Below, one piece after another: positions 1,002 to 64,000 of a DNA stretch of 64,000 nt. The stretch is from Eledone cirrhosa (taxonomy: Eukaryota). The translations under genes were made by a program, and so were the position numbers. The notes under the pieces were generated by a model. That model saw only the letters and a list, made by a program, of their open reading frames with translations. It was not told where the DNA came from and searched no databases. The DNA lies in assembly GCA_964016885.1 (NCBI GenBank), contig OZ024741.1:212784001-212848000 (forward strand), in the 5' to 3' direction. Each line of letters opens with the position of its first letter. Within the stretch, counting starts at the first letter, position 1.

Positions 1002-1073
<72 letters not shown>

Positions 1074-1311
1074 ATATAGATAATCTAGCTGTCGTCTGTT
1101 CTACAGTGTGGATGTCATTCACTTCGCACAGAAGTTTTGTTCAAATTTATTGAGGAAATTTTGTGAGTTCAAACTTAATTTTGATACAATTGTGTAGCAT
1201 GACCCTCCGTCTGAACTGTCAGGCGGTGGGTCAGCTCATCTTTACCCCTCCTAGAGGTGAAAAACCTGTTTTAAAAAATTTTGTGTAAAAACTTTCAATC
1301 GTCTAACAGAA

Positions 1312-3211: not shown

Positions 3212-3244
3212 GTCTCTACACTCTCCTTTGGCTCTGCCACCCAC

Positions 3245-6649: not shown

Positions 6650-7049
6650 GTAAAGAAGTAAAGGAGAGGGGAGCACCTTCTCCATGTGCTCCCCGGGCAA
6701 AGGATTGCACACTTTTTCGGGGGTGTGTGCAACCCCCATCACGTCCCCTCCCTTTTGAGGTTATTTTCGATTATTTTCATGTTACACCCTTTTTACTCGA
6801 TTATATGTAAACTCCCCCTTTGTATTTGTCCCTTCTTTTTATGCCTTTATGGTAAATAAAGAAATCTATCTATCTATCTATCTATCTATCTACATATCAA
6901 TATATTTATCTATCTGTAGAACTGTCTGTCTGTTCGTCTCTGTTAAACCTATTCAAGCATGTGAATATAATTGGACAGACTTAATCATACAGAAAACTTA
7001 GAAGTAAAATATGGCGGATAAATATCATAATAATGCATCAAGACTACCA

Positions 7050-13701: not shown

Positions 13702-13763
<62 letters not shown>

Positions 13764-13990
13764 TAGATAGATAGATTTCTTTATTTACCATAAAGGCATA
13801 AAAAGAAGGGACAAATACAAAGGGGGAGTTTACATATAATCGAGTAAAAAGGGTGTAACATGAAAATAATCGAAAATAACCTCAAAAGGGAGGGCACGTG
13901 ATGGGGGTTGCACACACCCCCGAAAAAGTGTGCAATCCTTTGCCCGGGGAGCACATGGAGAAGGTGCTCCCCTCTCCTTTACTTCTTTAC

Positions 13991-17428: not shown

Positions 17429-17461
17429 CTGGGCGGCAGAGCCAAAGGAGAGTGTAGAGAC

Positions 17462-19360
17462 CTACCTTTCCGCTTCCCGGGGTTCGGGTTGCACGACTTC
17501 CATGGTGTCGGGGGTGTTGGGTGAAGGGGTCTTGTGGTGGTGTGGGGTCGTCAGTGTGTGGTGGGGTTGGGGTGTTTGGAGTTGTGTTGGGGAGGGGAAG
17601 GGGAGGGGGAAAGCTTTTTAGTAGGACGCGGTTTATGGGTTTGACAGAGGGTGGTCCTACGTCCTCCTTAAAATCCTTTTTTAGTTTTTGGTAGAGGTTC
17701 ATTGGGATCTTTATTAGTTTTAAATGTGGGTAGTTTTCTGACGAAACAAAGTTTACACCTTCGATTTGTACCGAAGGATTATTGTATATGAGCTCATTTA
17801 ATTTATTATTGTTTCTGTTGATGTAAGTATAGTGTAATGTCTTTTTTTCCGATGGTGTGAGTGTTTCGAAGAGGGGAGGGGCAGGTTGGGTTTTGTTTGT
17901 TGCTGGAGGGGTGTTTTCTGTTTTGTTGGATTGTGTTGCGATTTGGGTGGGGGTTGTTTGTCCTTCTGTGTTTTGCACATGTTTTCTTTTTTTCCTTTTA
18001 ATCTGTCTGAAGGACTCCGTTTCTTCCTCCGAATTCGTTGGGTTATCTTCAGTGTTGGAGGGAAGAGGTATGTTTGCTCGTAATGTTTCCGTGTTGGTTT
18101 TCTTTGTGGGGGAGATGGATGTCACTATGTTAGACTGTGTTGTGTGTTGTGTCTGCGGTGGTTGTGTTGTTTTATTGAGTGAGAGGTTGGGTGGGCCTGT
18201 ATTTTGTTTTGGGGTAATGTGTTGTGACTGTTTGTGTTGTGGTGATGTTGTGGTTTTACTGAGGGACGGGTTGGTTGGGACTGAGTTTTGTTGTTTGTTT
18301 ATCTGTTGTGGTGGTGGTGGTGGAGCTGGTGTTGGTAGCAGGGTTTTCTTTTTGTTGCGTTGGGGACAAGTGGCCTTCAGGTGCCCTCTGCCTGCACAGA
18401 TATGGCAGGACAGCCTTCTCCCCTCCACGCTAATGTTTATATACCCGTGGTCCTCTAATAGGATTATGTCGGGTATTTGGGCGATGCGTTCAGGCTTCAT
18501 TTGTACTACCAGCTCTATACCTGTTCCACTGAACATATTGCCTGTGGTTTTCCCAATGGAAATCACGTTGTCATTCACTGGATCGATGAAGCCAGCTACG
18601 AGCCAGCAGTAGTCCACATCTGGCATCATTGCATCCAGCCATATGCGTTGAGTTCTTTTCCCCATATAAGATGGATAAAAGGTGAAATTTTTCGAGCGAA
18701 TTGGTGACAAAGCACATTTTTTTGCCGCCGATTCGTTCTTCATGATAATTGCTAGGCTTCCATACAGTCTGTCTTTTCTTATGAAAGTGGTTTCATTAAG
18801 TACTTCTGTGAGTACTGTTTTGATATCTGCTTGAGAAGGCTGTTCAGGTTTTTTTGTACTGTTGTTGATGGTCCGAAACTTGACCGTTCGGCTTTCAATG
18901 TCTTTCGTGAATTCTTGAGGCATTTTTACCGATAAAATACCATTCTCTCCTTCACTTATGTATTGTTTGGCGTCTGTGATCCTTCGTACTACATCTGAAA
19001 TGTTTTCCGCTATATAAGTCAAAGATTTCTTTGTTTTCTGTGCAAATGAAATCTTGTCGTCTGCTTTGTTTTCTGATATGGTGTTATTTTCAACTGTTAT
19101 TTTTGTGTTTGTTGTGTCTTTGTTTGTGTTATTAGTATTGTCATGCAATTTTTCAAATTTTTTTTTTTCGTTGTTGGAATCCAAGTCCAGATTTGTGTTT
19201 TCGTCATTTAATTTTTTCTCCGCAGATTCGTCCGTTTTTATTTTAATTTTTCCTTCCTTCTCTATGACGTTAGTTGGGAAGGAAGGGAGGACTAAAGCGT
19301 GCGAGCTTACAACTCTTACCGCTGTCCCCCACCACTATTTTCGTTCGCTGCGTTTAACAT
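17462..19360 (-). pseudogene. Tx1 ORF1 copy 2, frameshifted near both ends relative to copy 1
   Basis: 610-aa ORF 17352-19184 matches copy-1 ORF1 internally; the ATG equivalent (19360) and stop equivalent (17462) are out of its frame. Confidence 0.8.
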
Positions 19361-19596
19361 TTCTGTTAGACGATTGAAATTTTTTACACAAAATTTTTTA
19401 AAACAGGTTTTTCACCTCTAGGAGGGGTAAAGATGAGCTGACCCACCGCCTGACAGTTCAGACGGAGGGTCAAGCTACACAATTGTATCAAAATTAAGTT
19501 TGAACTCACAAAATGTCCTCAATAAATTTGAACAAAACTTCTGTGCGAAGTGAATGACATCCACACTGTAGAACAGACGACAGCTAGAGTGATAGT

Positions 19597-19671
<75 letters not shown>

Positions 19672-19779: not shown

Positions 19780-20035
19780 TATTACTATATTCCTTTGTTG
19801 GATAAATTTCTGAACCCGGTCATTGAAATGTTCATAGTATAATATATCCTTAAGGAATTACACCAGTCTAGCCTCCTGTCGTTTTATATTAATTAACTCC
19901 CTACATGCACCACCAATAACACAAACGAAGACGGATGAGTTACAATACGTCGAGTGCTCTCCCTAATATTACATCAATGTTGACTATACGGAATGACCTG
20001 TTCTATCCAGTGGTGAACCAGCAAACCTAAATGAA
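19780..20035 (+). mobile_element. Diverged copy of the PLE-like family found at 39083-39595
   Basis: ttacaccagtctagcctcctg...gactatacggaatgacctgttctatccagtggtgaacca is the reverse complement of 39083-39260; retains ccggtcattGAAAtgttcaTAgtataa (3' half of the HHR). Confidence 0.7.
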
Positions 20036-20769
20036 TATATATATATATAATCTGGTATATGAATGTGTACACTGACTCTGGCCCTGTCAGCATTGTTCAG
20101 TCGTGTAGTGCACGTCACTCTTTGCAGAGTGTGTGGAAGACGGCTATCGACAAGGACACAAATTCAAGGGTGGTTCTGACCTGCATAGAAACGATCTTTC
20201 CATGCTGTTCGCCGCAAGAGACCCGATGGTACATACGTCGAAATGTTACACTCGGCATACAACACCACCTGGAGACTTCATCCAACAAATAAGTCTCTCT
20301 GTATGGATCCCTGTTTCGAATCTCTAATATTGTGAAACATCGTCGTCTGGCCCTTCCCAGCCATCTCACTCTCCAATGTGAATCTGCTGGAAGATTGCTC
20401 CTTTGAACTCCGGATGCAAAGAGACGAGTTGGCCGACCGTATATCACCTTGAAATCAAAATCATGGAGATGGATACAGACCTCAAAGGAACGGATCGACC
20501 AACCGAGAACTCTGCAGCTCAAACTTCGTCAATGCGATTTATACGGGGCAGGTAATTTGACATTCGTTGTTTTTCCACTTAAGTCTTGACTTCTAGAACC
20601 AATCATCGACATAGATTGAGGTATACCTGGATTGAGGTATACCTGCACTTACATTTGCTGATACGGGAATTATTTCTTCATTGAAAATTTCAACTTCCAC
20701 TATATTTAAATCGGTACACCAACAAAAATACACTCAATTTGTATACTCACATCTCTACGGCAGTATTTA

Positions 20770-21090: not shown

Positions 21091-21379
21091 ACGGTTGTAT
21101 TTATATACTTCAATATATACACATTTTGAAAATATTTAGAATGAATTCTAATGCATGACCATTTTAACTTCCATCCTATTCCCTATTTTGATATAGATAG
21201 AAATCTAAACTATGATAAATGTAGTAATTGTTGTTCCACTTTGTTTTCTTTGCCTTACTTCATTTTAGTTTCTATAACTTATTTTCTACATTGGTGGCAT
21301 TCCTAAAGTAATTTTATACAAACCTGCTTACATTTGGTAGCGCTTGTAAGTAGTGCACCAGTACAATTATTATACTTTC

Positions 21380-22640
21380 ATTCTTTTACTGGTTTCAGTC
21401 AATAAACCGCAGGCATGCTTGAGCACTACATTCATTTATACTTTCACTGGTTTTACTGATTAGATTGCCGCCATGCTGGGGCACCACATTGTCTTATACT
21501 TTACTGGTTTCAATCATTACACTGTGACCATGCTGGGGCACCACATTCTCTTATGCTTTACTAGTTTCAGTCATTACACTGTGGCCATGCTGGGGCAACA
21601 CATTGTCTTATTCTTTACTGGCTTCAATCATTATACTGAAGCCATGCTGGGGCACCACATTCTCTTATTCTTTACTGGTTTCAGTCATTACACATGGTTT
21701 CACTCAATTTACTCTGGCCATGCTGGGGCACTAAGTTTTTTTAAATTCTTTTACTAGTTTCAGTCATTAGACTGTAGCCATGCTGGGGCACTAAGTTTTT
21801 TTATTCTTTTACTGGCTTCAATCATTAGACTGTGGCCATTCTGGGCCACCACATTGTCTTATTCTTTATGGCTTCAGTCATTACACTGTGGCCATGCTGG
21901 GGCATCACATTGTCTTATTCTTTACTGGCTTCAGTCATTACACTGAAGCCATGCTGGGGCACCCTTATTCTTTACTAGTTTCAGTCATTAGACTGTGGCC
22001 ATGCTGGGGCACATTATTCTCTTATTCTTTTACTGGTTTCACTCATTAGACTGTGGCCATGCTGGGACACCACGTTCTTTTATTCTTTTATTGGTTTCAA
22101 TCATTAGACTGTGGCCATGCTGGGCCACCACATTGTCTTATTCTTTATGGCTTCAGTCATTACACTGTGGCCATGCTGGGGCATCACATTGTCTTATTCT
22201 TTACTGGCTTCAGTCATTACACTGAAGCCATGCCGGGGCACCCTTATTCTTTACTAGTTTCAGTCATTAGACTGTGGCCATGCTGGGGCACATTATTCTC
22301 TTATTCTTTTACTGGTTTCACTCATTAGACTGTGGCCATGCTGGGACACCACGTTCTTTTATTCTTTTATTGGTTTCAGTCGTTAGACTGTGGTCATGCT
22401 GGGGCACCACATGCTTTTATTCTTTTTCTGGTCTCAGTCATTAGAATGTGGCCATGCTGGGGCACCACGTTCTTTTATTCTTTTATTGGTCTCAGTCATT
22501 AGACTGTGGTCATGCCGAGGCACCACATACTTTTATTCTTTTTCTGGTTTCAGTCATTTGACAGTGACCAGGCTTGGGCACAAAGTTCTTTTATTTTTTA
22601 CTGGTTTCAGTCATTAACCTGTGGCCATGATGGGGCAGTA
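21380..22640. repeat. ~55-60 bp minisatellite (about 21 units) with a 279-bp higher-order duplication
   Basis: Unit ttcttttactggtttcagtcattagactgtggccatgctggggcaccacattgtctta; block starting 21841 recurs at 22120. Confidence 0.9.
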
Positions 22641-26606: not shown

Positions 26607-26662
<56 letters not shown>

Positions 26663-26668
<6 letters not shown>

Positions 26669-26797
26669 CCGTACAGTAAATATTTATTATCAGCACAGAT
26701 TAAAAGTTTCATCAAACAATTTTTGCTTTCGCACTAAAAGTACATCGCTTTAGGGCAAATGCAGAATGTGTTAGCTTAAATTTGTTTAATCTCTGCC

Positions 26798-26840
<43 letters not shown>

Positions 26841-27272
26841 GTTTCTACTTTTTGGCACAAGGCCAGCAGTTATTCCAGTGTATTACTGGTGCTTTAGTTT
26901 ATCGACCCCGTAAGTTTGAAAGGCAACGTTAACCTCGATATATTTATATATATATATATTGTATATATTATTATTATTATTATTAATATATATAATATAT
27001 ATATATATATAAATATATCGAGGTTAACGTTGCCTTTCAAACTTACGGGGTCGATAAACAAAAGCACCAGTAATACACTGGAATAATTGCTGGCCTTGTG
27101 CCAAAAAGTAGAAACATTTATTATTATTATTATTATTGGCAGAGATTAAACAAATTTAAGCTAACACATTCTGCATTTGCCCTAAAGCGATGTACTTTTA
27201 GTGCGAAAGCAAAAATTGTTTGATGAAACTTTTAATCTGTGCTGATAATAAATATTTACTGTACGGGTGTGT
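26663..27272. repeat. ~600-bp composite palindrome (flanking DNA + (AAT)n + SINE 3' part) centred on an AT-rich tract
   Basis: acacacccgtacag... / ...ctgtacgggtgtgt; arms differ by a few substitutions and by (AAT)n length. Confidence 0.9.
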
Positions 27273-27295
27273 ATATATATATATATATATGTATG

Positions 27296-27327
<32 letters not shown>

Positions 27328-28250: not shown

Positions 28251-28254
<4 letters not shown>

Positions 28255-28609
28255 CTATTAACCAATTTTCACCCTGAATCTTCTGGACAATTAGATGACC
28301 AGTACACATGTTTGTGGAATATTCAGCAACTTGCGCTATAATACAAAATGTACTGCAACATTAATTCAATAGTTCAGCCTTTTCACAAAATAGCCACGCT
28401 AAATCTCCCCTAGAATAACGATAAAGGTACATGTACACGTGTCTGTGAAACGTTCAACAACATTCTTCTTAAATTGCTGAATGGATTGGTCAGTTGATTG
28501 AACAACTGAAACTATCTTCGTTGAAAATGAAGGAGGTCCAACACACACACACGCACACACACACACATACACACACACGCATACACATATATATATATAT
28601 ATATATAAA

Positions 28610-28661
<52 letters not shown>

Positions 28662-29008: not shown

Positions 29009-29469
29009 GAGCGAGTAGGACGCCGACGGCTGAGCTCAAGCCGTTTCGACGGCTAATTCTGGAATTAGTCCAGAATTAGCCGTCGAAACGGCTTGAGCTC
29101 ATATATATAAATTTATATATATATATATATATGTGTGTATGCGTGTGTGTGTATGTGTGTGTGTGTGCGTGTGTGTGTGTTGGACCTCCTTCATTTTCAA
29201 CGAAGATCGTTTCAGTTGTTCAATCAACTGACCAATCCATTCAGCAATTTAAGAAGAATGTTGTTGAACGTTTCACAGACACGTGTACATGTACCTTTAT
29301 CGTAATTCTAGGGAGATTTAGCGTGGCTATTTTGTGAAAAGGCTGAACTATTGAATTAATGTTGCAGTACATTTTGTATTATAGCACAAGTTGCTGAATA
29401 TTCCACAAACATGTGTACTGGTCATCTAATTGTCCAGAAGATTCAGGGTGAAAATTGGTTAATAGTATT
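28251..29469. repeat. Inverted duplication (~370-bp arms 28251-28620 / 29100-29469) enclosing three hairpin-element pieces
   Basis: aatactattaaccaattttcacc / ggtgaaaattggttaatagtatt; only a few mismatches between arms. Confidence 0.9.
28748..28953 (-). mobile_element. Fold-back hairpin element (family C) in (TA)n; further pieces at 28658-28708 and 29006-29100
   Basis: Homologous to 48649-48843 and 50136-50251; internal palindrome centred on tctggactc-t-gagtccaga. Confidence 0.8.
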
Positions 29470-29952
29470 TAAGCATAAAATCGTCTGACCATATTTCTGT
29501 TATTGCTATCCAGCGCTGTAAGCATATTGAGTAACACGAATAAAGACACTTTAAATTTTAACATCCCAGTCTAGCAAACTATCTACCAAAATATCTCAGT
29601 CCACATAAGAATATCTCAAAAATCATCAAAATAGCTCACTAATCATAAAGATATCTCAGTTTGCATAAACATAGCTCAGTTTACATAAATATATGCCCAG
29701 TTTACATAAACATAGTTTTCACTATATATATCTATATATCTATATATATATATATTGTTATGGAATACTGTTAGCTTCTCGCTACAACAATTTCTATACC
29801 TTTCATTTATATATATATCTCTATATATATATAACCAAAGATTAATGTGGTTCGTTGATTATTCAACGAATACAATTTTACAATAGATTAGAAGCACAGA
29901 AGCACTCGACAGCTATTTTCCTGGAGTATTTAATATTATTCAAAATATTAAT

Positions 29953-30029
<77 letters not shown>

Positions 30030-30039
30030 TAATAAAAAC

Positions 30040-31490
30040 AATGTAATAAAAACAAAGAACAAATTCCTTATATTAAGAAATTCATCATTTTACGATCGTT
30101 TCTAGGATGTATATGTGTGTTGGTATGTATATCATATAGATCTATGTAAAATATTACAAATTATCAGAGGAAATATACATACCTTCACATATACATGCTG
30201 TCTTCAGAAATGATGAGATTTGTTTATTAAAAAAAACTAACAAAGATAATATAATAGGTCTGTTTGGGAACAGGGTGTGAATTGACCAATAGAAAAGTAG
30301 TTAGAGGTCAAGCTGATAGAATAGTAGTAGTAGAAATTTAATTTAGGAGTAGAGAGTGCAGACTTATCTTTTGAATGAAAAGAATACTTTGAATGAAAAG
30401 AATACTTTGGGATGAAAAGAGGTCAAGCCGGTGAAGGGTACACCAACATTGGATGTTATTAAAGAATAATGTTAAAAACATTAAAGAATAATGTTAAAAA
30501 CGAAGGAAAATAATATTTTAGGGTAAGGGTATTAGTGAGAAATACCAATCTTATAACCGATCTATAACAAGAAATTAAATTAATTGATAGGTATACTTAT
30601 AGGGATAAATTTATATTAATTCATATGAATGTGATAAATAAGAATTAGATGTTATTAAAGAGTGTTGTTAAAAACGAAGGAAAGTAACATTTTGGGATAA
30701 GGGTAGTAGTGAGAAATACCAATCGTATATAAACTACAAGGAATCTAGATTCATAACAGGAAATTAAATTAATTTATAGGTATACTTTTAGGTATTAATT
30801 TTAGGAAAAGAGAGCTGTAAGAATGAAATAAAATTATGAAGTTCTCTGTAGTAAAGTACTAATTATAGGTTAACTTAATTAAACAAACTAATTATAATAA
30901 TATGTAAAATATAAGTGTAAGGTGTATATTAATTAGGTTTATAATATTTGAAGGTTCTTCTAATTCTATGTTTGCAAGATATAATTAATTCCTGTCGCTT
31001 ATTTAATAGGATATCCTTAGATTTCATGATTTCAAAAAAGTTCCTGGGAGCATAACCTACACTCGTATCTGTTATTTTGATAAGGAGTGGCCCTTTTGAG
31101 CACAATACAGGTCAGGTTGTAATCGATATTCTTCTTTCTATAATTATTAATTGTTTCAGCCAAGGATGTTGTATTAGCTAATGCGGCATTTTTAAAACTA
31201 TGTTTGTGGGTATTAAATCTTACTTTAAAATGGTTAGACGTAGCTCCTATATATGAATAAGTGGAGTCCTTAGTGCTAATTTTACATTTATAGACTATGT
31301 TATTAATAAGACACTTTCTCTTTAATGGGCAATTTTTTATTTATTCTACAGTTACAACCATTCGTGAATATTATATCAGGGGAGTTAGTCAAACTTGATT
31401 TTTGGAATACATTGAGTTCTTCATACGGATTGGACACCGTATATTTTGGTAGATTTATCCATATATATATGGTAGATTTATTTGGTAAAT
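30040..31490 (-). mobile_element. 5'-truncated Penelope-like element remnant (GIY-YIG endonuclease + 3' pLTR)
   Basis: Manual minus-strand translation of 30955-31360 (with frameshifts): CNCRINKK-CPLKRKCLINNIVYKCKISTKDSTYSYIGATSNHFKVRFNTHKHSF...CRLCSQELF-EIMKSKDILLNKRQELIISCKHR. Confidence 0.85.
30082..30216 (-). ncRNA. Hammerhead ribozyme with very long stem II, in the PLE pLTR
   Basis: UCAUCAUUU-CUGAAGA-[~98 nt hairpin]-GAAA-CGAUCG-UA-AAAUGAUGA: perfect 9-bp stem I, palindromic stem III, GUA triplet. Confidence 0.8.
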
Positions 31491-34200: not shown

Positions 34201-34329
34201 ATGGAAAGTTAGTTGGTGTTGGAGAATACTCGTTTTGATGTCTCTTTTACAACTAAAGTATATTCACATTTATACAATTATATGCTATCAGGTTGGAGTG
34301 TAAACTTAGATCGTGTATGATTTCATACG

Positions 34330-34930
34330 AATGAAACAGGCTTCAAGAGCGAAAGTTAATGAGACAATAGCTAACTGGGACCAAGGTAAAACTATTTCTA
34401 TTAGTCGTTTTCGTTACTGGTATTATCTAACAGTTGAAACAGCTTTCATGGGCGAAAGTGAATGAGACAATAGCTAACAGGGAACAAGGCAACAATATTT
34501 ATTTTAGTCTTTTTCATTACTGGTATTACCTAACAATTGAAACATCCTTCAATGGCAAAGGTCAATGAGACAATAGCTAACTGGGACCACGTTAACAATA
34601 TTTCCATTCGTCGTTTTCGTTACTGGTATAGTCTAACAATTGAAACAGCTTTCATGAGCGAAAGTCAATGAGACAATAGCTAACTGGGACCAAGGCTAAA
34701 ATATTTCCTTTAGTCTTTTTTGTTACTGGTATTATCTGACAGTTGAAACGCCTCGGTGAAAGAAGGAGGCTGGCTGTAAACCCAGAACGTGTTAGAAATA
34801 TCCTGATGATTTCATACGAATGAAACAGTATTGAAGAGCGAAAGTCAACGAGACAATAGCTAACTGGGACCAAACTAAAAATGTTTCTATTAGTTTTTCC
34901 CGTTACTGGTATAATATGACATTTGTAACG
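34330..34930. repeat. Diverged ~105-120 bp tandem repeat (about 5 units)
   Basis: gcgaaagtcaatgagacaatagctaactgggaccaagg recurs near 34350, 34452, 34555, 34658 and 34838. Confidence 0.85.
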
Positions 34931-35654
34931 CCTGGTAGAACGGAAGAGGAGGGTGTCTGTAAACTCAGGACTCACAGAACCATACTCAGCCGGAACAAAT
35001 AGCGAAACATCTAATCTGACGCTCTAACGACTCTGCCAATTCGCTTCTTTTAATATAACTTTAATACCAAACGGATATGACAGACACAAGTCATGAGATG
35101 TCTTTAATAGCTTTAAATCTTCGTTGGAGTAAAATACTTATAGAAAAATAAAAGCTTAAGAAAAATCATATTTAAATTAAATATTTGACTTTTATTCTCA
35201 AACTAGATATTGACTGACAGCAGTGCTTAAATATTCTCTCAAAATTTCTAGAATTTCCATAAACTTAAATATCACCGATGGTTCATAAATGTAATAATTA
35301 TTTCAAGTGATTAATCGCTTGTTTTTAATTTAATTATTCAATAATATGTCACAGTTGAAATGTAAAAGGAATCATTCTTGAATGGACACTGCCAGGAAAT
35401 GAAGATTAAGAAAATTTTATTATGTAAACTAATTAAGAATCCGTCCAAGAAATGTCTTTGTGAAATGAGGCGTTCTTCCTATGGCTCATATGATTGACTT
35501 TTATGACATCAACGTATAATATCGTTTATATATATATATATATAACTACATGTATATATAACTATATATATATAGACAAATACATACACATATATAGTTT
35601 CTCGTTGAAAATCCATGGATGATAACACAGATACACACACACACACACGCACAC

Positions 35655-39086: not shown

Positions 39087-39588
39087 GGTTTCTTGGTTCA
39101 CCACTGGATAGAACTGGTCATTCCGTATGGTCAATCCTGGTGTAATATTGTGAAGAGTACTCAACGTAGTGCAGTTCACCCATCTTCGTTTGTGTAGTTG
39201 GTGGTGCGAATACGGAGTTAATTATAAATGAAGTAACAGGAGGCTGGACTGGTGTAAATCCTTGAAAGGTTTATTATACTATGATCATTTCAATGATCGG
39301 GTTCCATATGAATCCGGTGATATCATCAGGTATTGGAATATAACAAAGGAATATGTAAAAAGCCATGGGTCCGAAAAACCATGGGTCCGAGAAACCAGAA
39401 ACCAGCCGCCTTCTCTGTCTCTGGTTTCTCGGACCCATGGTTTTTCGGACCCATGGCTTTTTACATATTCCTTTGTTATATTCCAATCCTGATGATATCA
39501 CCGGATTCATATGGAACCCGATCATTGAAATGATCATAGTATAATAAACCTTTCAAGGATTTACACCAGTCCAGCCTCCTGTTATTTC

Positions 39589-39595
<7 letters not shown>
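39083..39595 (-). mobile_element. PLE-like fold-back element (palindrome 39223-39399 / 39420-39595) between (TA)n tracts
   Basis: Near-perfect ~176-bp arms with a 20-nt spacer; homolog at 19780-20035. Confidence 0.85.
39276..39333 (-). ncRNA. Hammerhead ribozyme motif (mirror copy on + at ~39486-39542 has a 1-nt stem I deletion)
   Basis: AUAC-CUGAUGA-[imperfect CGGAUUC..GAACCCG hairpin]-GAAA-UGAUCA-UA-GUAU; palindromic stem III. Confidence 0.6.
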
Positions 39596-39856: not shown

Positions 39857-40269
39857 TATATATATGAAAGACGTAAATAAGAAAGTTATGAAAATTGACT
39901 TACTTACTAAAATTTCACTCCAACTAATTAGTTTCTGTAAGGGGATAAATACAGTTATGTAATACCTGTAGAGAAGCCTTACGTCATCTGGGAGTCTATT
40001 CTCAGCTAAGCCACCAGGCAATGCGGGGACACTGGAAGCTTATATAACAATAATTCAGTGGATGGAAAAAAGCGAAAAAATCGAGCGGGGCTAGATTCTA
40101 AGCACTGAAAAATTCGCTGCCTCCTCGGTCAAGTGGCAAATTCAAAAGAATTAATCACGTGACACTGAGGTTAACCAGCTTGGAGTGGGGGTGATATTAA
40201 GACAGAGCCTAGCTACTACTATAAGTCACAGTAGTAATTTGGCAAATTTTGCTCTAATTTGGAGATGAA

Positions 40270-40497
40270 TATAAAGAATTTAATATATCTACCGACATAT
40301 GTATACAGATGCATACCTACGCTAGCAGATATATATGTTTTGTCTTAGTTTCATAATTTTCTTGTTTACGTCTTTCATATAATTGTTCTGCATTCCCCTG
40401 AATAGAACTACAAAGTTACTAAGACAAAACATATATATCTCCTAGCGTAGGTATGCATCTGTATACATATGTCGGTAGATATATTAATTCTTTATAT
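40270..40497. repeat. Inverted duplication (40270-40350 / 40420-40497)
   Basis: tatctaccgacatatgtatacagatgcatacctacgctag / ctagcgtaggtatgcatctgtatacatatgtcggtagata. Confidence 0.85.
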
Positions 40498-41410: not shown

Positions 41411-41427
41411 AAGTATATATATATTAT

Positions 41428-41796
41428 AATATTAAATAAATGGAAACTATATTTATAAAACCATATTTATTTCATTATATATATTTCGGGGATATCATAT
41501 TAACAATATGCTATGCCTTCCTCAGACAAAATACAATATAAACAGTTTTATAGATAAATAGATTCGACATACCGTTATAACACCGACTTCCATTTGAAGA
41601 GGTTTAAGCTGCCAGCTTAAACCTCTTCAAATGGAAGTCGGTGTTATAACGGTATGTCGAATCTATTTATCTATAAAACTGTTTATATTGTATTTTGTCT
41701 GAGGAAGGCATAGCATATTGTTAATATGATATCCCCGAAATATATATAATGAAATAAATATGGTTTTATAAATATAGTTTCCATTTATTTAATATT
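41428..41796. repeat. Perfect palindrome, 184-bp arms, 1-nt centre at 41612; the element continues to ~41890
   Basis: aagctg-c-cagctt centre; arms match by inspection. Confidence 0.92.
41691..41756 (+). ncRNA. Hammerhead ribozyme motif (mirror on - at 41468-41533)
   Basis: UAUUUUGU-CUGAGGA-[..CAUAUU(GUU)AAUAUG..]-GAAA-UAUAUA-UA-AUGAAAUA. Confidence 0.65.
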
Positions 41797-41889
41797 GTAA
41801 ATATACTCCAAATATTTGTCGAGTGCTTTTATATCAGTTATAAATATTTACTAGTTGTAACCCAACAATTTTAAATATAACTTTCCATA

Positions 41890-41934: not shown

Positions 41935-42119
41935 AATATTAACATAATCATGTTCCAATTAACAAACAAACGGGTGTGCAAAATTTCAGCTCAATCGGAC
42001 AACTGATGGGCGACCCAATTCTGGTCAAAAGCGTCATACTGTACCCTCGATCATTTTCTTTTTTCTTAGAGAAATTTATGTAGATACATCCAGGCAATCC
42101 CAGCATATTGAATATATAT

Positions 42120-43215
42120 ATAACCACATTATATAGATATATAACCATATTATATAGATATATAACCACATTGTATAGATATATAACCACATTATATAGA
42201 TATATGACCACATGATATAGATATATAACCACATTATATAGATATATAACCACATGATATAGATATATAACCACATTATATAGATATATAACCACATGAT
42301 ATAGATATATAACCACATTGTATAGATATATAACCACATTGTATAGATATATAACCACATTATATAGATATATGACCACATGATATAGATATATAACCAC
42401 ATGATATAGATATATAACCACATTATATAGATATATAACCACATTATATAGATATATAACCACATTGTATAGATATATAACCACATTATATAGATATATA
42501 ACCACATGATATAGATATATAACCACATTATATAGATATATAACCACATGATATAGATATATAACCACATTATATAGATATATAACCACATGATATAGAT
42601 ATATAACCACATTGTATAGATATATAACCACATTGTATAGATATATAACCACATTATATAGATATATGACCACATGATATAGATATATAACCACATGATA
42701 TAGATATATAACCACATTATATAGATATATAACCACATTATATAGATATATAACCACATTGTATAGATATATAACCACATTATATAGATATATAACCACA
42801 TGATATAGATATATAACCACATTATATAGATATATAACCACATTATATAGATATATGACCACATGATATAGATATATAACCACATTATATAGATATATAA
42901 CCACATGATATAGATATATAACCACATTATATAGATATATAACCACATTATATAGATATATAACCACATTATATAGATATATAACCACATTATATAGATA
43001 TATAACCACATTATATAGATATATGACCACATGATATAGATATATAACCACATTATATAGATATATAACCACATTATATAGATATATAACCACATTATAT
43101 AGATATATAACCACATTGTATAGATATATAACCACATTATATAGATATATAACCACATTATGATATAGATATATAACCACATTATGATATAGATATATAA
43201 CCACATTATGATATA
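42120..43215. repeat. 21-bp minisatellite (about 52 units, few variants)
   Basis: Unit ataaccacattatatagatat with tga/ttg/tgacc variants. Confidence 0.95.
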
Positions 43216-43224
43216 AGTCTATAT

Positions 43225-43880
43225 GCTCCTCTCCTCCACATCATCCAATTCATCCCCTTCCCCTTCCCCTTCCTCCCCTTGCTCCTCTATTCCCTCACTA
43301 ACCTTCCTCCACTTCCTCCCCTTCTCCCTCTACTCCCTCTCATTCCCACCCTCTGCTACATCCCCTTCCCCCTTTCTGCCCTCCATCTCTTCCCCCCTGA
43401 CCCTCCCCCTGTTCTCTCCTTGCTCTCCTTGTTCTCCTTCCTGTCTTTGCTTATTACTCCCTTGCTCTTCTTTTCTCCATCCTCTCCTTAATCTGCTTTT
43501 ATCCTTGCTCTCCTTCTTCTCCTTGCTCTCCTTTTTCTCCTTGCTCTCCTTTTTCTCATTGCTCTGCTTGCTCTCCTTTTGTCCGCCCTCTCCTTGCTCT
43601 TCTTTTCTTCTTCATCTCCTTCTCTCCTTTTATCTTTGCTCTGATTCCTCTCATTGCTCTCCTTTTCTCATTGCTCTCCTTGCTTTCATTTTAGCCTTGC
43701 CCTCCTTGCTCTCCTTTTCTTCTTCATCTCTCCTTTTCTTATTGCTCTCCTGCTCTCCTTTTATCCCTGTTCTCCTTGCTCTCCTTTTCCTTTTGCTCAC
43801 TTGCTCTCCTTTTCTCATTGCTGTTGTCCTTGTTCTCTTTTTCTCCTTACTCCCCTCTTTCCCTTGCTATCCCGTTCTCC
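43225..43880. repeat. Pyrimidine-rich low-complexity tract (ttgctctcct motif)
   Basis: Direct inspection. Confidence 0.8.
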
Positions 43881-44806: not shown

Positions 44807-45004
44807 TATATATATATATATACATATATATATTTATAATTGTTTCTACTTTAGGCACAAGGCCAGAAATTACCCAGTGCATTACTGGTACTTTATTTTA
44901 TCGACCCCGTAAGGATGAAAGGCAAAGTCAACGTCGGCGGGATTTGAACTAAGATCGTATATATATAATAAAAAAAAATTCGCTCTACATGGCTGAATAC
45001 AATA

Positions 45005-45368
45005 AATCTAATCTGAGTTTTAGAATAGTATTAATAACATTCGATTCGTTTGCAATTATGCAAACAAACCTCATTTTTAAAGCCATGTCAGTAGAATGAA
45101 CCCTTCATTCTTGCTCTTGTATTGGCATGTAAACAGAACTGCAGACACTAATGTTTCTGGGTATCACGCTTCATCAGTACAGCTCACTGTCCACCTGCCA
45201 ACTGTCAGAGCTAATGAAAAGTATATGCTATTTTCTAAAATATAGTGACTGATCGGCCTGATTTGCAAGGACTCATTCTACTGACATGGCTTTACAAATG
45301 AAGCTTGTTTACATAATTGCAAACGAATCGAATGTTATTATTAATATTCGAAAAACTCAGATTACATT
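45005..45368. mobile_element. Fold-back element (arms ~45005-45105 / 45268-45368) with an HHR in the spacer
   Basis: taacattcgattcgtttgcaattatg / cataattgcaaacgaatcgaatgtta. Confidence 0.8.
45136..45185 (-). ncRNA. Minimal hammerhead ribozyme motif
   Basis: GAGCUGUA-CUGAUGA-AGCGUGAUACCCA-GAAA-CAUUAGUG-UC-UGCAGUUC: 8-bp stem I (2 GU), near-palindromic stem III, GUC triplet; stem II weak with a mismatch. Confidence 0.7.
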
Positions 45369-45384
45369 TATATATATATATATA

Positions 45385-48648: not shown

Positions 48649-48650
<2 letters not shown>

Positions 48651-48843
48651 GGAATGAGCAGGACCCCGACGGCTGAGATCCAGCCGTTTCGACGGCTAAT
48701 TCTGAGTCCAGAATTAGCCGTCGAAACGGCTTGAGCTCAGCCGTCGGGGTCCTACTCGTTCCTATTACCCACTCTACTACCCTAAGTATTGAGTACTTTG
48801 GTGCGTTATGGTCCATCTGATTCTTACTACATTTCCTTCGTTA
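48649..48843 (+). mobile_element. Family C fold-back element carrying the 3' half of a hammerhead
   Basis: Palindrome 48649-48764; GACGGCUAAUUCUG(AGUC)CAGAAUUAGCCGUC-GAAA-CGGCU(UGAGCUC)AGCCG-UC-GGGGUCCU; unique 3' tail to 48843; in (TA)n. Confidence 0.8.
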
Positions 48844-50999: not shown

Positions 51000-51560
51000 T
51001 CTGCCAGAATCGGTACAGGACCGGTGAAAATTTTTTGCGGTATTTAGTTAGCGCTCTTTCAATTCCGAGTTCAAATGAGGCTGAGGTTACCTCTACTTTT
51101 CATTTTTCCGGGCTCAATATAATAATGTGTTAATCAATTATGAGGACCAATGAAATCGAATTACACTGTCCCCACAAATTTCTGGTCTTGTGCCTAAATA
51201 TGACCCCATTTGGATTGGCAGTATCGGTAGAGCGTCGCACAATATGTATCGTGACATTGAGTTACAGCCTTTTGCGTTCTCAGTTCAAATCCCGCCGTGG
51301 TTAACTTTGCCTTTCTTCCTTACGAGGTCGATAAAATAAGCACCAGTAATGCACTGGGGTAATTGCTGGCCTTGTGCCAAAAGTAGAAACAATTATTTAA
51401 GTGTAAAAGGTGTCAAATTGATAGATTGGTTAAAACGTCGGATAGAATACTTTGTGATATTGGCTCCGACTCTCTGTCCTCTGGGTTCCAGGCCCACCGG
51501 GGTCAACTTTGCCTGTTATCCTTTCGAGGTCTATAAACATAGTACCAGTCTAGTAACAGT
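51000..51560 (+). mobile_element. Cluster of three tandem SINE copies
   Basis: Three successive gagttcaaat/gggttccag...gcct...atcctt.cgaggtc.ataaa...taccagt-type units. Confidence 0.7.
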
Positions 51561-53587: not shown

Positions 53588-53836
53588 GTATATATATATA
53601 TGCATATATATATATATATAACGAAGTAAGTGTGGTAGGGAACCATATATACATATATACGTGTATTATGTATGCATCATCTAAGTATGCATGCATGCAT
53701 ATGCATATGTATATATCTATATATATACATATATAAGTGTATGTACATATAGACACATCTACATGTAGATGTGTCCGTGTCTGGGTATATACATATATAT
53801 ATATATATATATATACATACACATACTTGTATATGT

Positions 53837-56235: not shown

Positions 56236-56462
56236 TTTTTTTAAGGATCGATCGACTTTCGTCAAATCGGACCGAGGAAACAATGTTTCCGTTGGTCTTT
56301 CCAGTTGCTAGTACTATCTATCGGTCGCAACTCCAGGTAGAAGGAGCAACGTGAAATAAAGTGTCTTGCTCAAGGACATAACGCATCGCCCGGTCCAGGA
56401 ATCGAACTCACAACCTCAAGATTGTGAATCCAATTCTCTAACCATTCAGCCACACGCCTTCA
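56236..56462 (-). mobile_element. Short tRNA-derived SINE, twin of 39631-39856
   Basis: Near-identical reverse complement. Confidence 0.85.
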
Positions 56463-56608
56463 TATATATATATAAGCAATGAGTTATTTAAATTGTTGAT
56501 TATTCAACAAAGTTAATTTATAACAGCTTAGGAGCACTCAACAGTATTCTTCTGGAGTATAATATCAATAATATTAATAAATGGAAAATATCTTTATAAA
56601 ACCATATT

Positions 56609-56668
56609 TATTTTATTATACATATTTCAAGGGTACCAAATGTTGGTACGCTATCGTCAGATAAAATA
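56609..56668 (-). ncRNA. Hammerhead ribozyme motif in a pLTR-like element (56476-56725)
   Basis: UAUUUUAU-CUGACGA-[GUACCAA(CAU)UUGGUAC]-GAAA-UAUGUA-UA-AUAAAAUA: perfect 8-bp stem I; downstream sequence homologous to 41757-41890. Confidence 0.75.
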
Positions 56669-56721
56669 CAATATTTGGTTTACAGATAATATCGACATAT
56701 AAACTTAATGTTATGAGTTCA

Positions 56722-56775: not shown

Positions 56776-57006
56776 CCAAAGATTAATATGGTTCGTTGAT
56801 TACTCAACGAATACAGTTTAACAATAGATTAGAAGCACTTAACAGTAAAATTTTCCTGGAGTTTTTAATATTATTCAAAATATTAACAAATGAAAAATAT
56901 TCGCATAATCAAAATATATACTTTATTATTTATATTTCAAAAGTATTCTGCCAATACGGGAATTGAATAATCAAGAACGTAGCGGTATGTCATATATCAA
57001 ATCATA

Positions 57007-57072
57007 TATTTTGTCTGATGAGGATGTACTGAAAAAACAGCACAGTACCTTTGAAATATATATAATAAAGTA
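57007..57072 (+). ncRNA. Hammerhead ribozyme motif in fold-back element 56775-57120
   Basis: UAUUUUGU-CUGAUGA-[GUACUG..CAGUAC]-GAAA-UAUAUA-UA-AUAAAGUA; arms ~56872-56945 / 57045-57119. Confidence 0.7.
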
Positions 57073-57130
57073 TATATTTTGAGTATGCGAATATTTTTCA
57101 TGTGTTAACATTTTGAATCATATATATATA

Positions 57131-57450
57131 TATGTAAAGTAGAAAAAGTTATTTTGATGGAGATGAGAATAGATATATATGAAAATTGGTGGAGGGTTGA
57201 AGAGTATGCATCGCAGTATTTAGTTGCAGTTCTTTATGTTTTGAGTTGAAATTCTCTCTCCGTGAATTTATCAATCCATCGCCCTCAACTGATACCGTGT
57301 ATATAATAAAACATTGATCTCGGCAGGAATTTCAACTTAAAACATAAAGAACTGCAACTAAATACTGCGATGCATACTTTTCAACCCTCCACCAATTTTC
57401 ATATATATCTATTCTCATCGCCATCAAAATAACTCTTTCTACTTTACATA
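57131..57450. repeat. Inverted duplication (57131-57254 / 57327-57450) including a degenerate SINE head
   Basis: gtatgcatcgcagtatttagttgcagttctttatg / cataaagaactgcaactaaatactgcgatgcatac. Confidence 0.85.
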
Positions 57451-58153: not shown

Positions 58154-59231
58154 TTTATTTTAATTTTAATTTTATTTTATTTCTATTTTTCTTCTTTCAT
58201 TTTTCTTCTTTTATCCCATGTTAGAGAGTCCTGTCAGAAACAACCGTCTTGAAATTATCTGGTATCTGGATCCTCAAGCGAGGCCAACCGAGCTCTTAGA
58301 TGTTACTCAACCATCTTTGCTTTTGGCCATCTTAAAATACAATTTTAATTGCTTCTATTTTTGGCACAAGGCCAGCAAATATTCCAGTACATTACTGGTA
58401 CTTTATTTTATCGACCCCGTAAGGATGAAAGGCAGAGTTAACCTCGGCGGGATTTGAACTCAGCCCGTAAGGGACGTTACTGCAAAGCATGGCGTACGAC
58501 CCTCTACCGAAATACAATTTTAATGGTAAGTGACTTCATATTTGCTCATCCATCTCTCTATTGTGTCTTTCACAACTCCCTACCTCCTCAATCCACTTTG
58601 ATATATTTTCTTTGTCGTTTTTTTTATCATTTCTCTCTCTTCCTTCATTTAGTTCATCTATTCTACAATTTCTTTATTTACTTAGAATTATTCTTGTCTG
58701 TTTTATATTCGTTTCTTTTAAACATGTAACAGTTGATTCTCTTTGTCTTTCTCTACAAATCTTCTTTCAACTCTGTCTTTCTCTTTCTCTCTTTGTCTCT
58801 CTTTCCCTCTATCTATCTCTCACTCTATCTCTCTCTCTATATATATATGATCATATATATATAAATGTGTTTGTGCACATATATATATAAATATATATGT
58901 GTGAGTGTGTATATATACATATATATATATATATACAGTTTAATTGTAAACCAATCTTAAAGAGAAAGATGGAGATAGGAGAGGAGAAGAGAGATTGGTG
59001 AATTAGTTAGAAGCCAAAAGCGTAAAGGCATATGCTCAATGTGCAATATGTAGTGGAAGGCAGCTAGATGGCTGGGTTCATGCAGAGATTAGGTGCGCAG
59101 AGCTGGAAATATTCATTAGTTAAGCAAAACAAGACCACAAATTTCACAAGGAAGACATCATTTAAAGATTTTCAACATAGTTGCAGTTTAATGTAAGGAA
59201 TAAGGAGTGTAAATATAGTTTAATTCATGGA

Positions 59232-59286: not shown

Positions 59287-59290
59287 TAAT

Positions 59291-61743
59291 GTCCGTTTAC
59301 AATTGTTTCGCTACTCCATGTAACGTTTCTGGATCAAATGATTATAGATCATTATTGATCTGGTTCAGATGAAGATAATTAACTTAGGTAAAAATGGAGC
59401 AGCTCTTCAGAACTTCAAAAGAGATAATGAAAACATTGATGATGGTACGATGGAATAAGGAATATAAAGTAAGGTAAAGAAAGATGGTTACGTGAATGTA
59501 ATGTTCCCTATATTGGTATTTGACTATGGTGTCCTGGGTCTATCTATTGTCTGCTATAGGCAAGCGTTATTCTTCCGTCGAGGCTGCATTATTCGAGATC
59601 TGCCTATGCGTAACAAGATGGCCACCTAAGGACATATTTACCTTACTAATTAGAGACAGGTTTCAAGGGAAGTAACTCCTTGAGAATTTAGAAATTGTAG
59701 GTGATTTATAGCTAAGAAGTGCTAATGAGCTTAAGTGAGAGACAGTGTAGGGGAGGTAACTTATAATTATCTAATTCTGGGTTAAATATTTAACATGTTT
59801 GTTATAAGTAAAAGTGGGATTAGATGACCATGTTGGGTCAAATATTCTGTTGACAAAAGAAATTTGCCCTTCGATGTTGACAGCTAATAGTTATCTGGTT
59901 TCTATCATTAATCGGTATAGGTCGTTATAGAGTTATGTAATAGGCCTCGGTAAGACAGAGATCGCAAGAGTTTCTTCGACCATTGAAAGCTTGGGCTCTA
60001 GCTAAGATATCCCATGTTAGTGAGTGTTCAATGTTGGTTAATCTAAGGTTGTTAATGAGCCTAGCTAGAGATGTTGAACATCTATTGCTAGGGTCTCGGA
60101 AGGAAAATGAGTGCGCGTTATAGCGTACCTTAAAAGGGTTAGAGGTAGAGCCAATATAGCAGCTGGTATGTGATGCTCTTTTAACTGTGCACCTATATAC
60201 TATATTGGGGGTAAGGCATTGCCCGTTTAGTGGGCATGCATTAGGGTAACGGCAGTTGCAGTTACTGCTGCGGTTAGTGAGGGTAGGGTTGTTTAAACTA
60301 TGTGGTTGGTGTGTGCTAGAAGGATTAGATTAAGTATTGGTGTAGTGGTGTGGTGTATTTGAAGGGGGTCGTGGTACCGCGGTGTGGGAGTTATACTCTC
60401 TTAGTTTATGATGGTTGGTGTATTTGAAGGGGGTCGTGGTACCGCGGTGTGGGAGTTATACTCTCTTAGTTTATGATGGTTACTGAATGCGATGTTGCTA
60501 GCTAGGTTAGGTGTTGTGGAGAATGAGATTTTAATGTTGTTTTTATTAAAGAGTTTGTAATATCTTTGGTTGGGGGTAATGTTTAGATAAGATAGAGAAG
60601 AAGCGTTTATGGATATTAGTGGCTAAATTAGATGAGAATGGGGGGTTAAGCCAGGTGACCTATTCCTTCTAGGAGTTCTAGTGGAGTTGGCAGGGGCCTT
60701 CATAGGGTTATTATTACCTGGGCGTTTGTTATTTGTCATACAATTGCACATTCCTATTCTAGGGTTGATTCTGAGTCTGCTACTAGGAGTGGGATCTAGG
60801 CCTCTGCCACCATTATGGTTCCCTGTATAGGTGCTGTTACTGCTAAAATACCGGCGTATCTGGCTACATGCTAAAGTGTTTCTAGTTCTAGTGTTAAGTT
60901 TATTATGGTTGTGGTGAAGTACTGTGTTATGGCATTTAGGTATGTAGTAAATGGACTGTACATAACCAGATTTAGAAAGGACCTTATAATATGCCGCATG
61001 GTTCATAAATATCTCCTCATTTGCGGATAGCATGTAGATCCTATACGAGATAGATTTGATGACTGCTCTGATGACTTCCCTGGGTGGTTAGAGTGCGGGC
61101 TAATATATGTAAGTATTTCACCTGGTTTATGATAAGGGTAATATAAGTTATTGTTAAGATCTAGGGTACCGTCCAGGAAGTTTACTACCTTATGGTTCGG
61201 TTCGATGGTGATAGAAAGATCGTTATTTAAAAAAAATCTATGTAGTAAAAAACTATGTAGTCTCTAATTAGTAAGGTAAATATGTCCTTAGTGACCATCT
61301 TGTTACGCATATCAGATCTCGCATAATGCAGCCTCGACAGAAGAATAAAGCTTGCCTATAGCAGACAATAGATAGACCCAGGACACCATAGCAAAATACC
61401 AATATATGGAACATTACTTTCATGTAAACATCTTTCTTTAGCTTACTTTATATTCCTTATTCAATCGTACCTTTATCAATATTTTCATTATCTCTTTTGA
61501 AGTTCTGAAAAGCTGCTCCATTTTTACCTAAGTTAATTATCTTCATCTGAACCAGATCAATAATTGTTTCTACTTTAGGCACAAGGCCAGCAATTACCCA
61601 GTGCATTACTGGTACTGCACTGGGTAATTGCTGGCCTTGTGCCTAAAGTAGAAACAATTATTGATCTGGTTCAGATCAATAGTGATCTATAATCATTTGA
61701 TCCAGAAACGTTACATGGAGTAGCGAAACAATTGTAAACGGAC
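59291..61743 (-). mobile_element. 5'-truncated Penelope-like element with inverted pLTR (59291-59660 vs 61258-61743)
   Basis: Minus-strand RT thumb VVNFLDGTLDLNNNLYYPYHKPGEILTYISPHSNHP (~61080-61190); GIY-YIG NCNCRYPNACPLNGQCLTPNIVYRCTVK...CYIGSTSNPFKVRYNAH...CDLCLTE (~59870-60265); stops and frameshifts; inverted terminal copy. Confidence 0.9.
61545..61676. repeat. Palindrome made of a SINE 3' end plus ~20 bp of the pLTR it inserted into
   Basis: atctgaaccagatcaataattgtttctactttaggcac...cccagtgca-ttactggtac-tgcactggg...gaaacaattattgatctggttcagat. Confidence 0.9.
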
Positions 61744-61744
61744 A

Positions 61745-64000
61745 GAATGTGGTAAATTGTTTACTTTGCATAGGTGCCAGTGGATCACCCTGCCCATCAC
61801 ATCATGTCTCCAGCCCTTATAGTGAGTCCGGGCTAGGTGTTTACACTCGGATACAATGTGAGCCACAGTCTTCTCTCTCTCTCTCTCCACAGATCCTGCA
61901 CAGTGGGCTAGCCTCCTCCTTCTAAATGTGATGTTTCAACCACTTCGTTTTGAGGGCCTGCTCCTGCGCAGCCATTAACATTCCTTCTGTAGCCTTTTTA
62001 AGGTCTCCTCTTTTCAACCAGTTCCATGTCTGTGGATCTCTAAATTCAGTTTTCTCAAAGAAGGTACTATGAAGGGATTTTTCCTGAAGGCTGCTCTTTC
62101 TCCTTGATGTTATTTCCTCCTTGGACATCCCCTGGCCTACTGTCCCCTCCTTCAGTACAGTTCTGAGCATTGGCTCCTTACTATAGGTCACGTATTTGTA
62201 TAGGTTGTTTTTCTCCATCTGAACACAGTCCTCTATGCTGATAAGACCTCTTCCACCCTCAGATCTCCTTAGGTAGAGTCTATCGACATCACTCCTCTTG
62301 TGGAACATGTTGTAGATAGTCAATAGCTTCCTAGTCTTCCTATCCATTTCTTTTTGTTCAGCAACATTCCATCTCAGAATTCCCGCACTGTACCTAATAA
62401 TAGACACAGCTCGGGAATTTACTGCACTTATGGCATTTCTGCTGTTCAGATGTGACTTCAATACGCTCCTTACTCTCCGAATGTATTCAGTTCTTAACAA
62501 TTCCTTCATTTTTTTGTTCTTTATGCCATCAGCCTCCAGAACGCCCAAATACTTGTATCCTTCCTCAGAGTCAATTTCCTTTATCATCTCACCTGTTGGT
62601 ATCTGGATCCCGTTACTTCTGCTCAACCTACCACTCCTCATCACAATGACTCCACATTTACCAATACCAAACTGCATACATATATCACTGCTGAAAATAC
62701 GGACAGTGTCAACAAGCACATCCAACTCCTTCTCACTTTTCCCGAAGAGCTTAAGATCGTCCATGAAGAGGAGGTGATTGATGGTAAGCTCTCCCCTTCC
62801 CAACTTGTATCCTGCTCTCACTTTTCGCAGCATAATGGTCAAGGGCATCGGGGCAAGGACAAACAACAGAGGGGACAGGCTATCTCCCTGGAAGATACCT
62901 CTCTTGATCTTCACGCTTCCCAAGGATACTCCAGTTGATGTCAACTCTGTCTCCCAGGACCCCATACTCCTGCCCAGCAACTGTCTGATGTTATCTGCCA
63001 CCCTGAAGATCTCCAGGCTTTTGGTGATCCAGGAATGAGGCACCATGTCAAATGCCTTTCTGTAGTCTATCCATCCCATGGCAAGATCAGTGTGTCTCCT
63101 CCTGCAATTCCCCATTACCATCTTATCAATAAGCAACTGGTCCTTTGTACCACGTGACTTCTTTCGGCATCCTTTCTGTTCGTCCGGTAACAAGTTGTTT
63201 GTGTGGAGGTGATGGTAGATTTCCTCAGACACAATGCTCGTCAACAGTTTCCACATTACGGGCAGACATGTGATAGGTCTATAGTTGGTAACATCATTAC
63301 CCTTGATTCGGTCTTTCATTATCAGAACTGTGGTACCTTTTGTCAACCACTCTGGCACCTCACCCGACACCAAGCAGTCATTGAACATGGCCGTCAGCTT
63401 CGGGTGGAGGGATGTTAAATGTTTAATCCAATACCCCTGCACCTCCATCTGGGCCTGGTGATTTCCAGTTGGTTAGTTTTTTGGCTTGCCCCTTAAGAGT
63501 TTCAACTGTGATACTCAAATCAGTCTGTTGCTGTGCCTGCTCACCGATCTCCCTCTGTACTGTCTCAATCCACCCTGCCTGGGCATTGTGTCTAACATCC
63601 TGCTCCCATATTCCTCTCCAGAATGTTTTAGCTTGTTCCGCCCCAGGGATCAAGTCGTTGCCTCTTTCTTTCCCCTCAAGCTGTCCAAACAGCATCTTCT
63701 GGTTGTTGTCGAACATGCGGTTCTGTTTATACTGACTGACTCTGTTCTCGTATCGCCTGATTTTGGCACTCTTTGCTACAATGCGTTGCTTCAATTCCTC
63801 TATGATAATATTTAGGTTTTTACTCCTAGTTTTGTATTTTATTTCCAGTCTATTTTTAGTGCCTATGTTTTTTAGTGTCCCATTCAGTAGTGACTCAAGC
63901 TTTCCTATGTCATTCCTCATTTCCCCGATTTGCCCACTCAGTCGCTTCTTCCACCACGGCTCTGCTCTTTCTTGTCTGTTGTTTCCTCTCGCTTTTATAC
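61745..64000 (-). mobile_element. R4/Dong-like non-LTR retrotransposon (RT + zinc knuckle), frameshifted, 3'-truncated at the PLE, extends past the window
   Basis: ORFs 63423-63920 and 61922-63448: NWKSPGPDG, YRPITCL, WIDYRKAFDMVPHSW, GIFQGDSLSPLLF, LLFMDDLKL, RLYLRRSEGGRGL, MAAQEQAL; downstream CRICGEREKTVAHIVSECKHLARTHYKGWRHD. Confidence 0.85.

Follow-up and report, generated by a model that had tools for sequence, protein, structure and literature searches.

Palindromic family C insertions with half a hammerhead and a one-sided tail, probably derived from a Hydra-type Penelope-like retroelement

Family C repeats are short palindromic insertions that probably represent severely 5'-truncated copies of a Hydra-type Penelope-like retroelement (PLE), or of a non-autonomous derivative of one, in which only the pLTR end is left and two cDNAs are joined head to head. 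Their PLE identity, of which we are highly confident, is firmer than the route by which the cDNAs were primed. Here, we describe the copies found in a TA-microsatellite-rich, animal-like sequence of 64,000 nucleotides (the whole stretch analysed, hereafter the window), their two 3' ends in public sequencing reads, and a bulged hairpin in their tail. The layout is known PLE biology rather than a new system, with family C as a new member of it. A literature search found no description of family C or its hairpin, but it did not extend to Repbase, Dfam or subscription papers, so the family may already be catalogued.

Anatomy of the family C copies

On its tail-bearing plus strand, the copy at 48649-48843 (C3) runs from a mirror arm (48649-48704, an inverted, tail-less copy on the minus strand) through the palindrome spacer AGTC (48705-48708) and 14 nt (48709-48722) that, by their position before the GAAA box, are the predicted 3' strand of hammerhead stem II, into the 3' half of a predicted type I hammerhead (48723-48750), a TTCCTA string, and a one-sided tail of 79 nt (48765-48843) that ends in (TA)n. 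The hammerhead half comprises the GAAA box (48723-48726), a 6-bp stem III with a palindromic GAGCTC loop, the GUC triplet (48743-48745; NUH of a type I hammerhead, with the predicted cut after 48745) and the stem I 3' strand GGGGT. The two arms are identical at 52 of 56 positions. The outer end of the mirror arm corresponds to TTCCTA at 48764, from which the tail then runs on to 48843; it abuts (TA)n, as the same end does in reads, and TA runs lie on both sides of the copy. The palindrome has a folding energy of -103 kcal/mol (z -20.9; equally stable shuffles 0 of 200), and the stability of the 28-nt hammerhead half is ordinary (z 0.09). The natural partner of stem II is missing in C3, and across the copies the partners of stem II and stem I occur only as mirror copies. 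Support was found for the reading, made in the initial annotation, of a hammerhead-like 3' half with its 5' half replaced by the mirror arm. As ribozymes the family C copies cannot function; their transcripts would form a long hairpin.

Three palindromes had been annotated initially, and their centres proved exact: 28889|T|28891 in C1 (28747-28954, minus strand, a complete copy of another subfamily with its tail on that strand), 29063|ATTAG|29069 in C2 (29006-29101, plus strand, arms identical at 33 of 33 positions) and 48704|AGTC|48709 in C3, the last marking a 5' truncation point common to all three within about 7 nt. The claimed lack of CUGANGA was confirmed, with no CTGANGA within 300 nt upstream of the GAAA box of any of the three. 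The series of GAAA, stem III and GUC after each centre is intact in C3; the right arm of C2 stops after loop III, and stem III of C1 has two mismatches.

A profile built from the family C arms was searched against the window and yielded four more loci. C4 (50135-50252, minus strand, E 2e-30) bears a tail and has perfect 19-bp arms around a 1-nt spacer at 50233; its centre is about 40 nt further 3' than those of C1 to C3, at the predicted ribozyme cut site, and its tail arm begins on the base directly after the predicted cut. C5 (49809-49907, strand unassigned, E 0.0012 and 0.017) is a decayed, asymmetric, two-armed relative without a tail, and C0 (28658-28711, strand unassigned, E 6e-14) is a lone arm fragment that nearly duplicates the C1 mirror arm. 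The fourth (C6, 53619-53649, minus strand) may be a tail-end remnant, as had been suggested for about 53619-53646, with a weak match (E 0.21). Inversion at nearly the same place, as first described, therefore holds for three of the five two-armed copies, but C4 and C5 invert elsewhere. A family C 22-mer occurs four times in the window (0.00 expected).

An inverted 5'-truncated copy joined at the 5' end is present in C1 to C4, and TA runs flank C0 to C4 and C6; the reads also show insertion into (TA)n. Arm lengths range from 19 to about 62 bp, so that internal length varies, with spacers of 1 nt in C1 and C4 and 5 nt in C2. Subfamily variants are common to both arms within each copy, and the arms of C4, like those of C2, are identical to each other. 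Junctions differ between copies, and the proposal of separate inversion events was supported. C0, C1 and C2 are enclosed by an inverted repeat (28251-28620 and 29101-29469, 98% identical) that abuts TA on the left and is extended on the right, which is probably a further palindrome of PLE type or else an inverted duplication that family C inserted into. An open frame runs through the family C tail, and no ORF linked to family C was seen.

In the 40 of 111 variant rows listed, the 33 variable positions leave untouched all 7 positions of the core (P 0.089) and all 12 of core and stem I together (P 0.014), and CpG positions in these rows are variable at 10 of 10 sites outside the core and stem I and at 0 of 4 inside; this is a hint only, the listing covering 40 of the rows and the test having been chosen after the table was seen. 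An Rfam search of the window returned no family at gathering score and no HH9 match at family C, its miRNA matches being hairpin or TA artefacts. Scans with exact family C patterns found no loci in metagenome contigs, viral contigs or prokaryote genomes, a result that is uninformative for an animal repeat.

Copy number, 3' ends and upstream sequence in reads

Four of the 22 public read runs listed (X1, X5, X8 and X20) were aligned to the tail-bearing half, 48704-48843. Family C has a very high copy number in organism A (15,321 contigs in X1 and 22,216 reads in X20), with 3 and 5 matching contigs in organisms B and D. Two sharp 3' ends, 79 nt apart, are joined to (TA)n, one at 48765 (3543 reads in X20, 92 contigs in X1) and one at the tail end, 48843 (4410 reads in X20, 96 contigs in X1). 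Junctions cluster at 48702-48709. Among the rows listed there is no pile of read ends at the predicted cut site, so the inversion point of C4 may be chance. A pile of 7206 read ends at 48712 in X20, a RAD library, lies on AATT, which is probably the restriction cut, and it was set aside.

Upstream of 48705, AT-rich sequence continues in 101 X1, 2 X5 and 1 X8 contigs, matching the mirror arm at only 4-6 of 30 positions and alike among the three runs and organisms (as alike in 0 of 2000 shuffles); one other X8 contig shows the mirror arm. The initial annotation had placed the centre in the loop of a short, perfect (14-bp) stem II of the master element, and this non-mirror sequence speaks against it. 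The upstream motif has no match in the window at up to 3 mismatches. An extended stem II formed by the upstream motifs and 48705-48722, suggested by visual inspection, was rejected as not well supported by duplex energy, the motifs pairing weakly with the stem II 3' strand (114, 26 and 320 of 2000 shuffles as good). No CUGANGA occurs in the 30 nt upstream of 48705 shown by the reads, which a long loop II in the master of family C would allow. By analogy with neighbouring Hydra-type PLEs, which have 94-98 nt between core boxes, the 5' half probably lies further upstream. The sole direct hint of such a loop is one X8 contig with CTATTT 30 nt upstream.

The 11 opposite-strand joints listed all show asymmetry, of 36-82 nt, and four of them end at 48759, a point at which alignment may be disrupted by subfamily indels. 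None of those listed is symmetric, though the window has several such joints, and the table probably under-reports them; the asymmetry can also stem from later deletion.

The tail hairpin and neighbouring elements

The family C tail contains a bulged hairpin (ACTC-stem-loop-stem-TY-GAGT-RCT; 48771-48797, plus strand, in C3), identified by motif scan and compensatory pairs. Eight instances of the motif lie in the window, each 44-79 nt ahead of a TA run, whereas shuffles average 0.09 and none of 200 reaches eight. Three belong to family C, four to hammerhead-bearing or related families, and one lies at 31854. When sequence alone was asked for, the upper stem had at least 3 pairs in seven of eight matches. 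Two of seven pairs change on both sides and 98% of cells are paired. Three pairing measures were reached in 0 of 500 shuffles, and two that count pairs or types in 323 and 445 of 500, figures that are not a probability, the sequences being related and selected for pairing. The hairpin is the lowest-energy fold in four of six tails folded, C3 and C4 being the exceptions, and none of the tails has unusual stability. Tail extensions in nearby families measure about 80-140 nt, compared with 79 nt in family C.

The hairpin may be a docking site of the element's copying enzyme. It is the most testable lead, a candidate cis-acting element open to mutation in an in vitro assay of the kind used by Frangieh et al. 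(2024), and a profile of it could help to recognise PLE remnants that lack an ORF and are readily mistaken for MITEs or microRNA-like hairpins. A broader proposal, which we put forward tentatively and at somewhat less than even confidence, is that Hydra-clade PLEs carry a conserved tail hairpin (RCTC-stem-loop-stem-2-nt bulge-GAGY-RCT) that would dock the RT/nuclease and set two flanking start sites, that a dimeric complex would prime both nicked strands of the TA run and build palindromes directly, and that hammerheads in this lineage bear loop II inserts of 30-100 nt overlooked by standard descriptors, with cDNAs stopping at the loop edge and at the cut site.

Other elements in the window share parts of this architecture. 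Self-comparison gave 15 local palindromes, 14 of which abut (TA)4 at exactly one end, while the 15th starts at the window edge; palindromes at 26611-27324, 40269-40497, 45002-45371 and 57131-57450 abut a TA run at one end only. A relaxed scan found seven complete type I hammerheads, six of them independent (two are mirror duplicates; shuffle mean 0.075), and caught long-loop motifs missed by a strict scan, which found only two. Two of the hammerheads lie downstream of GIY-YIG-like ORF ends; their core boxes are separated by 98 and 94 nt, which fold into extended stems (z -4.6 and -2.3). At 30085-30215 and 31032-31340 (both minus strand), a frameshifted GIY-YIG-like ORF end is followed by the hammerhead with the 98-nt extended stem II; at 59290-61744, a truncated Hydra-type PLE between inverted repeats includes a nuclease ORF (59925-60329) and a hammerhead with a 94-nt stem II span at 59410 (minus strand). 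The CxCX5C, CxxC and CxH motifs that define Hydra-clade nucleases (Craig et al., 2021, PMC8557442, in the sections available) are present in ORF 59925-60329 and partly in 31032-31340, neither of which is tied to family C. GIY-YIG Pfam matches of the neighbouring ORFs are below the cut-off (E 0.03), and a protein search with the neighbouring nuclease gave two relatives among 34 candidates, so the clade call rests on motifs.

A complete compact type I hammerhead occupies 346-392, inside the inverted repeat 1-683, in the 95-nt spacer of a 294-bp perfect palindrome; an Rfam HH9 match at 336-404 has an E of 0.0014 and 30 bits against a gathering score of 52. An AT-rich family (41418-41805, 56462-56700, 56868-57123 and 29805-30001) has complete hammerheads with stem II spans of 25-31 nt, one-sided tails and the same tail hairpin. 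The palindrome at 39223-39595, with a second partial copy at 19812-20066, carries CTGATGA...GAAA on both arms, and its tail holds a long-loop form of the hairpin (loop of about 40 nt).

The window also contains two LINE copies in inverted orientation (1002-6913 and 13727-19671, 97% identical, with APE endonuclease, RT and zf-RVT by Pfam and one open frame of 1156 aa), and a 516-aa RT frame of another non-LTR element (61922-63472, minus strand, Pfam RVT_1 E 2e-22) that is interrupted near 61744 by the PLE insertion. Minisatellite arrays occupy 41957-43240, 21369-22640 and 34317-34971, with units of 21 bp, roughly 55-60 bp and about 103 bp, the last containing a CTGATGA...GAAA string. A dispersed SINE-like family of 100-190 bp is found at 715-814, 10510-10878, 26835-27122, 44830-44960, 51211-51397, 58346-58510 and 61559-61662.

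Origin of the palindromes and relation to known Penelope-like elements

In the mechanism that we propose, the GIY-YIG nuclease of the element would nick a TA run on both strands, and a single RNA species would be reverse transcribed from two sites flanking the bulged hairpin, namely the tail end (48843) and a point just 5' of the hairpin (48764). Both cDNAs would stop early and be joined head to head into a palindrome; the stop would often fall at the edge of the AT-rich stretch, which is probably a long hammerhead loop II, and in some cases at the predicted cut site. CUGANGA would be lost from the copies because it lies upstream of the cDNA stop. The master element may carry an active ribozyme.

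Two target-primed cDNAs are modestly favoured over fold-back self-priming of one cDNA, which keeps the PLE origin and would use a longer stem II or chance microhomology, with a nuclease nick at the ATT immediately 5' of the tail hairpin fixing the outer end. Fold-back is possible, though we consider it doubtful. Self-priming, which the initial annotation placed at the stem II hairpin, has been proposed before for PLE junction palindromes (PMC3846280) and an ATT cut preference has been reported (PMC11167929), both in the available portions of those papers. The concordance of subfamily variants between arms within each copy and the identical arms of C2, with its 5-nt spacer, and of C4 fit fold-back as well, and CTATTT in the X8 contig can pair with AAATAG, the majority sequence in the stem II 3' strand. 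Self-priming alone, however, leaves unexplained why the mirror arm ends at a fixed point 79 nt before the tail does, as well as the 1-nt spacers and C4, which like C5 inverts elsewhere. The preference for two cDNAs follows from the fixed mirror end and from the absence from the C1 and C3 spacers of the loop sequence seen upstream in reads, together with the asymmetry of the 11 listed joints and the 1-nt spacers of C1 and C4, which are hard to obtain by simple fold-back.

It is unlikely that family C is instead a short non-autonomous PLE derivative whose RNA begins near 48705, the CUGANGA half having been lost altogether and the GAAA/GUC half being a relic. The 15,321 X1 contigs, the junctions clustered at 48702-48709 and the 30 upstream nucleotides free of CUGANGA would suit such an element, but homologous sequence continues upstream in three organisms, and the listed rows hold no variants at core and stem I positions (CpG 0 of 4, against 10 of 10 elsewhere). 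An ordinary TA-targeting MITE of a cut-and-paste DNA transposon would also have fixed ends in TA runs and could have a palindromic body; TA target duplications, which together with fixed termini had been named as the mark of a MITE, are unreadable inside TA runs. This origin is nevertheless very improbable and was rejected on the one-sided tail and the variable arms: the termini are not inverted repeats of each other, internal length and junctions vary between copies, and the tail motif is shared with PLE ends. The initial preference for a PLE over a MITE is accordingly upheld. A non-LTR retrozyme was likewise rejected, family C showing none of the direct tandem repeats with complete hammerheads that mark one.

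The formation of inverted ends by PLEs is named as the next task by Craig et al. (2021, PMC8557442, as far as the available text goes), and family C provides short copies by the thousand, with two sharp 3' ends and junctions that can be counted. The following comparisons refer to the portions of each source that were available. The published PLE layout includes an inverted 5'-truncated copy and a one-sided tail, and Hydra families insert in (TA)n (PMC8557442). Hydra-clade PLEs (Hydra-2_Amil, Hydra-2_Ajap, Hydra-1_Obim and Penelope-13_HM) share the (TA)n target and one-sided tail with family C and have a type I hammerhead near the 3' end, of which family C shows the 3' half; Penelope-13_HM also has a 5'-truncated inverted copy at its 5' end. 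By eye, two of the six consensi in File S7 (Hydra-2_Amil and Hydra-2_Ajap) carry the same bulged hairpin in their 3' ends, with a G-C basal pair, while it is doubtful in Hydra-1_Crog and absent from three shorter consensi. Family C differs in its 6-bp stem III with a 7-nt loop (3-4 bp in File S2), in its tail of 79 nt (30-40 nt in published PLEs) and in that no ORF was seen for it, and loop II of the window's neighbouring elements greatly exceeds the 3-10 nt given for hammerheads of Hydra elements. In the available portion of that paper's supplement, searched as line-wrapped text, four family C motifs had no matches.

Non-LTR retrozymes and PLE minimal hammerheads (Cervera and de la Pena, 2014, PMC4209133; bioRxiv 10.64898/2026.07.22.740005) resemble family C in their PLE-derived type I hammerhead and palindromic loop III, and dual hammerhead motifs on opposite strands and scattered truncated copies have been described; retrozymes, however, form direct tandem repeats with complete ribozymes, whereas family C is inverted and has the 3' half only. 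The Penelope elements of Adineta vaga (Arkhipova et al., 2013, PMC3846280) have head-to-head inverted pLTRs, junction palindromes and an optional tail, as in family C, but are longer copies with ORFs and 8-10 bp target duplications, and their junction is not tied to hammerhead anatomy in the text available. The Poseidon PLE of Anolis (PAc; Frangieh et al., 2024, PMC11167929) belongs to a different clade, has a 30-40 nt tail inside the ORF start, and is described in the available text without reference to inverted arms. In vitro, it nicks AT-rich DNA on both strands, and its two start sites of reverse transcription, which lie at a stem-loop, delimit the tail, as in the route that we propose for family C.
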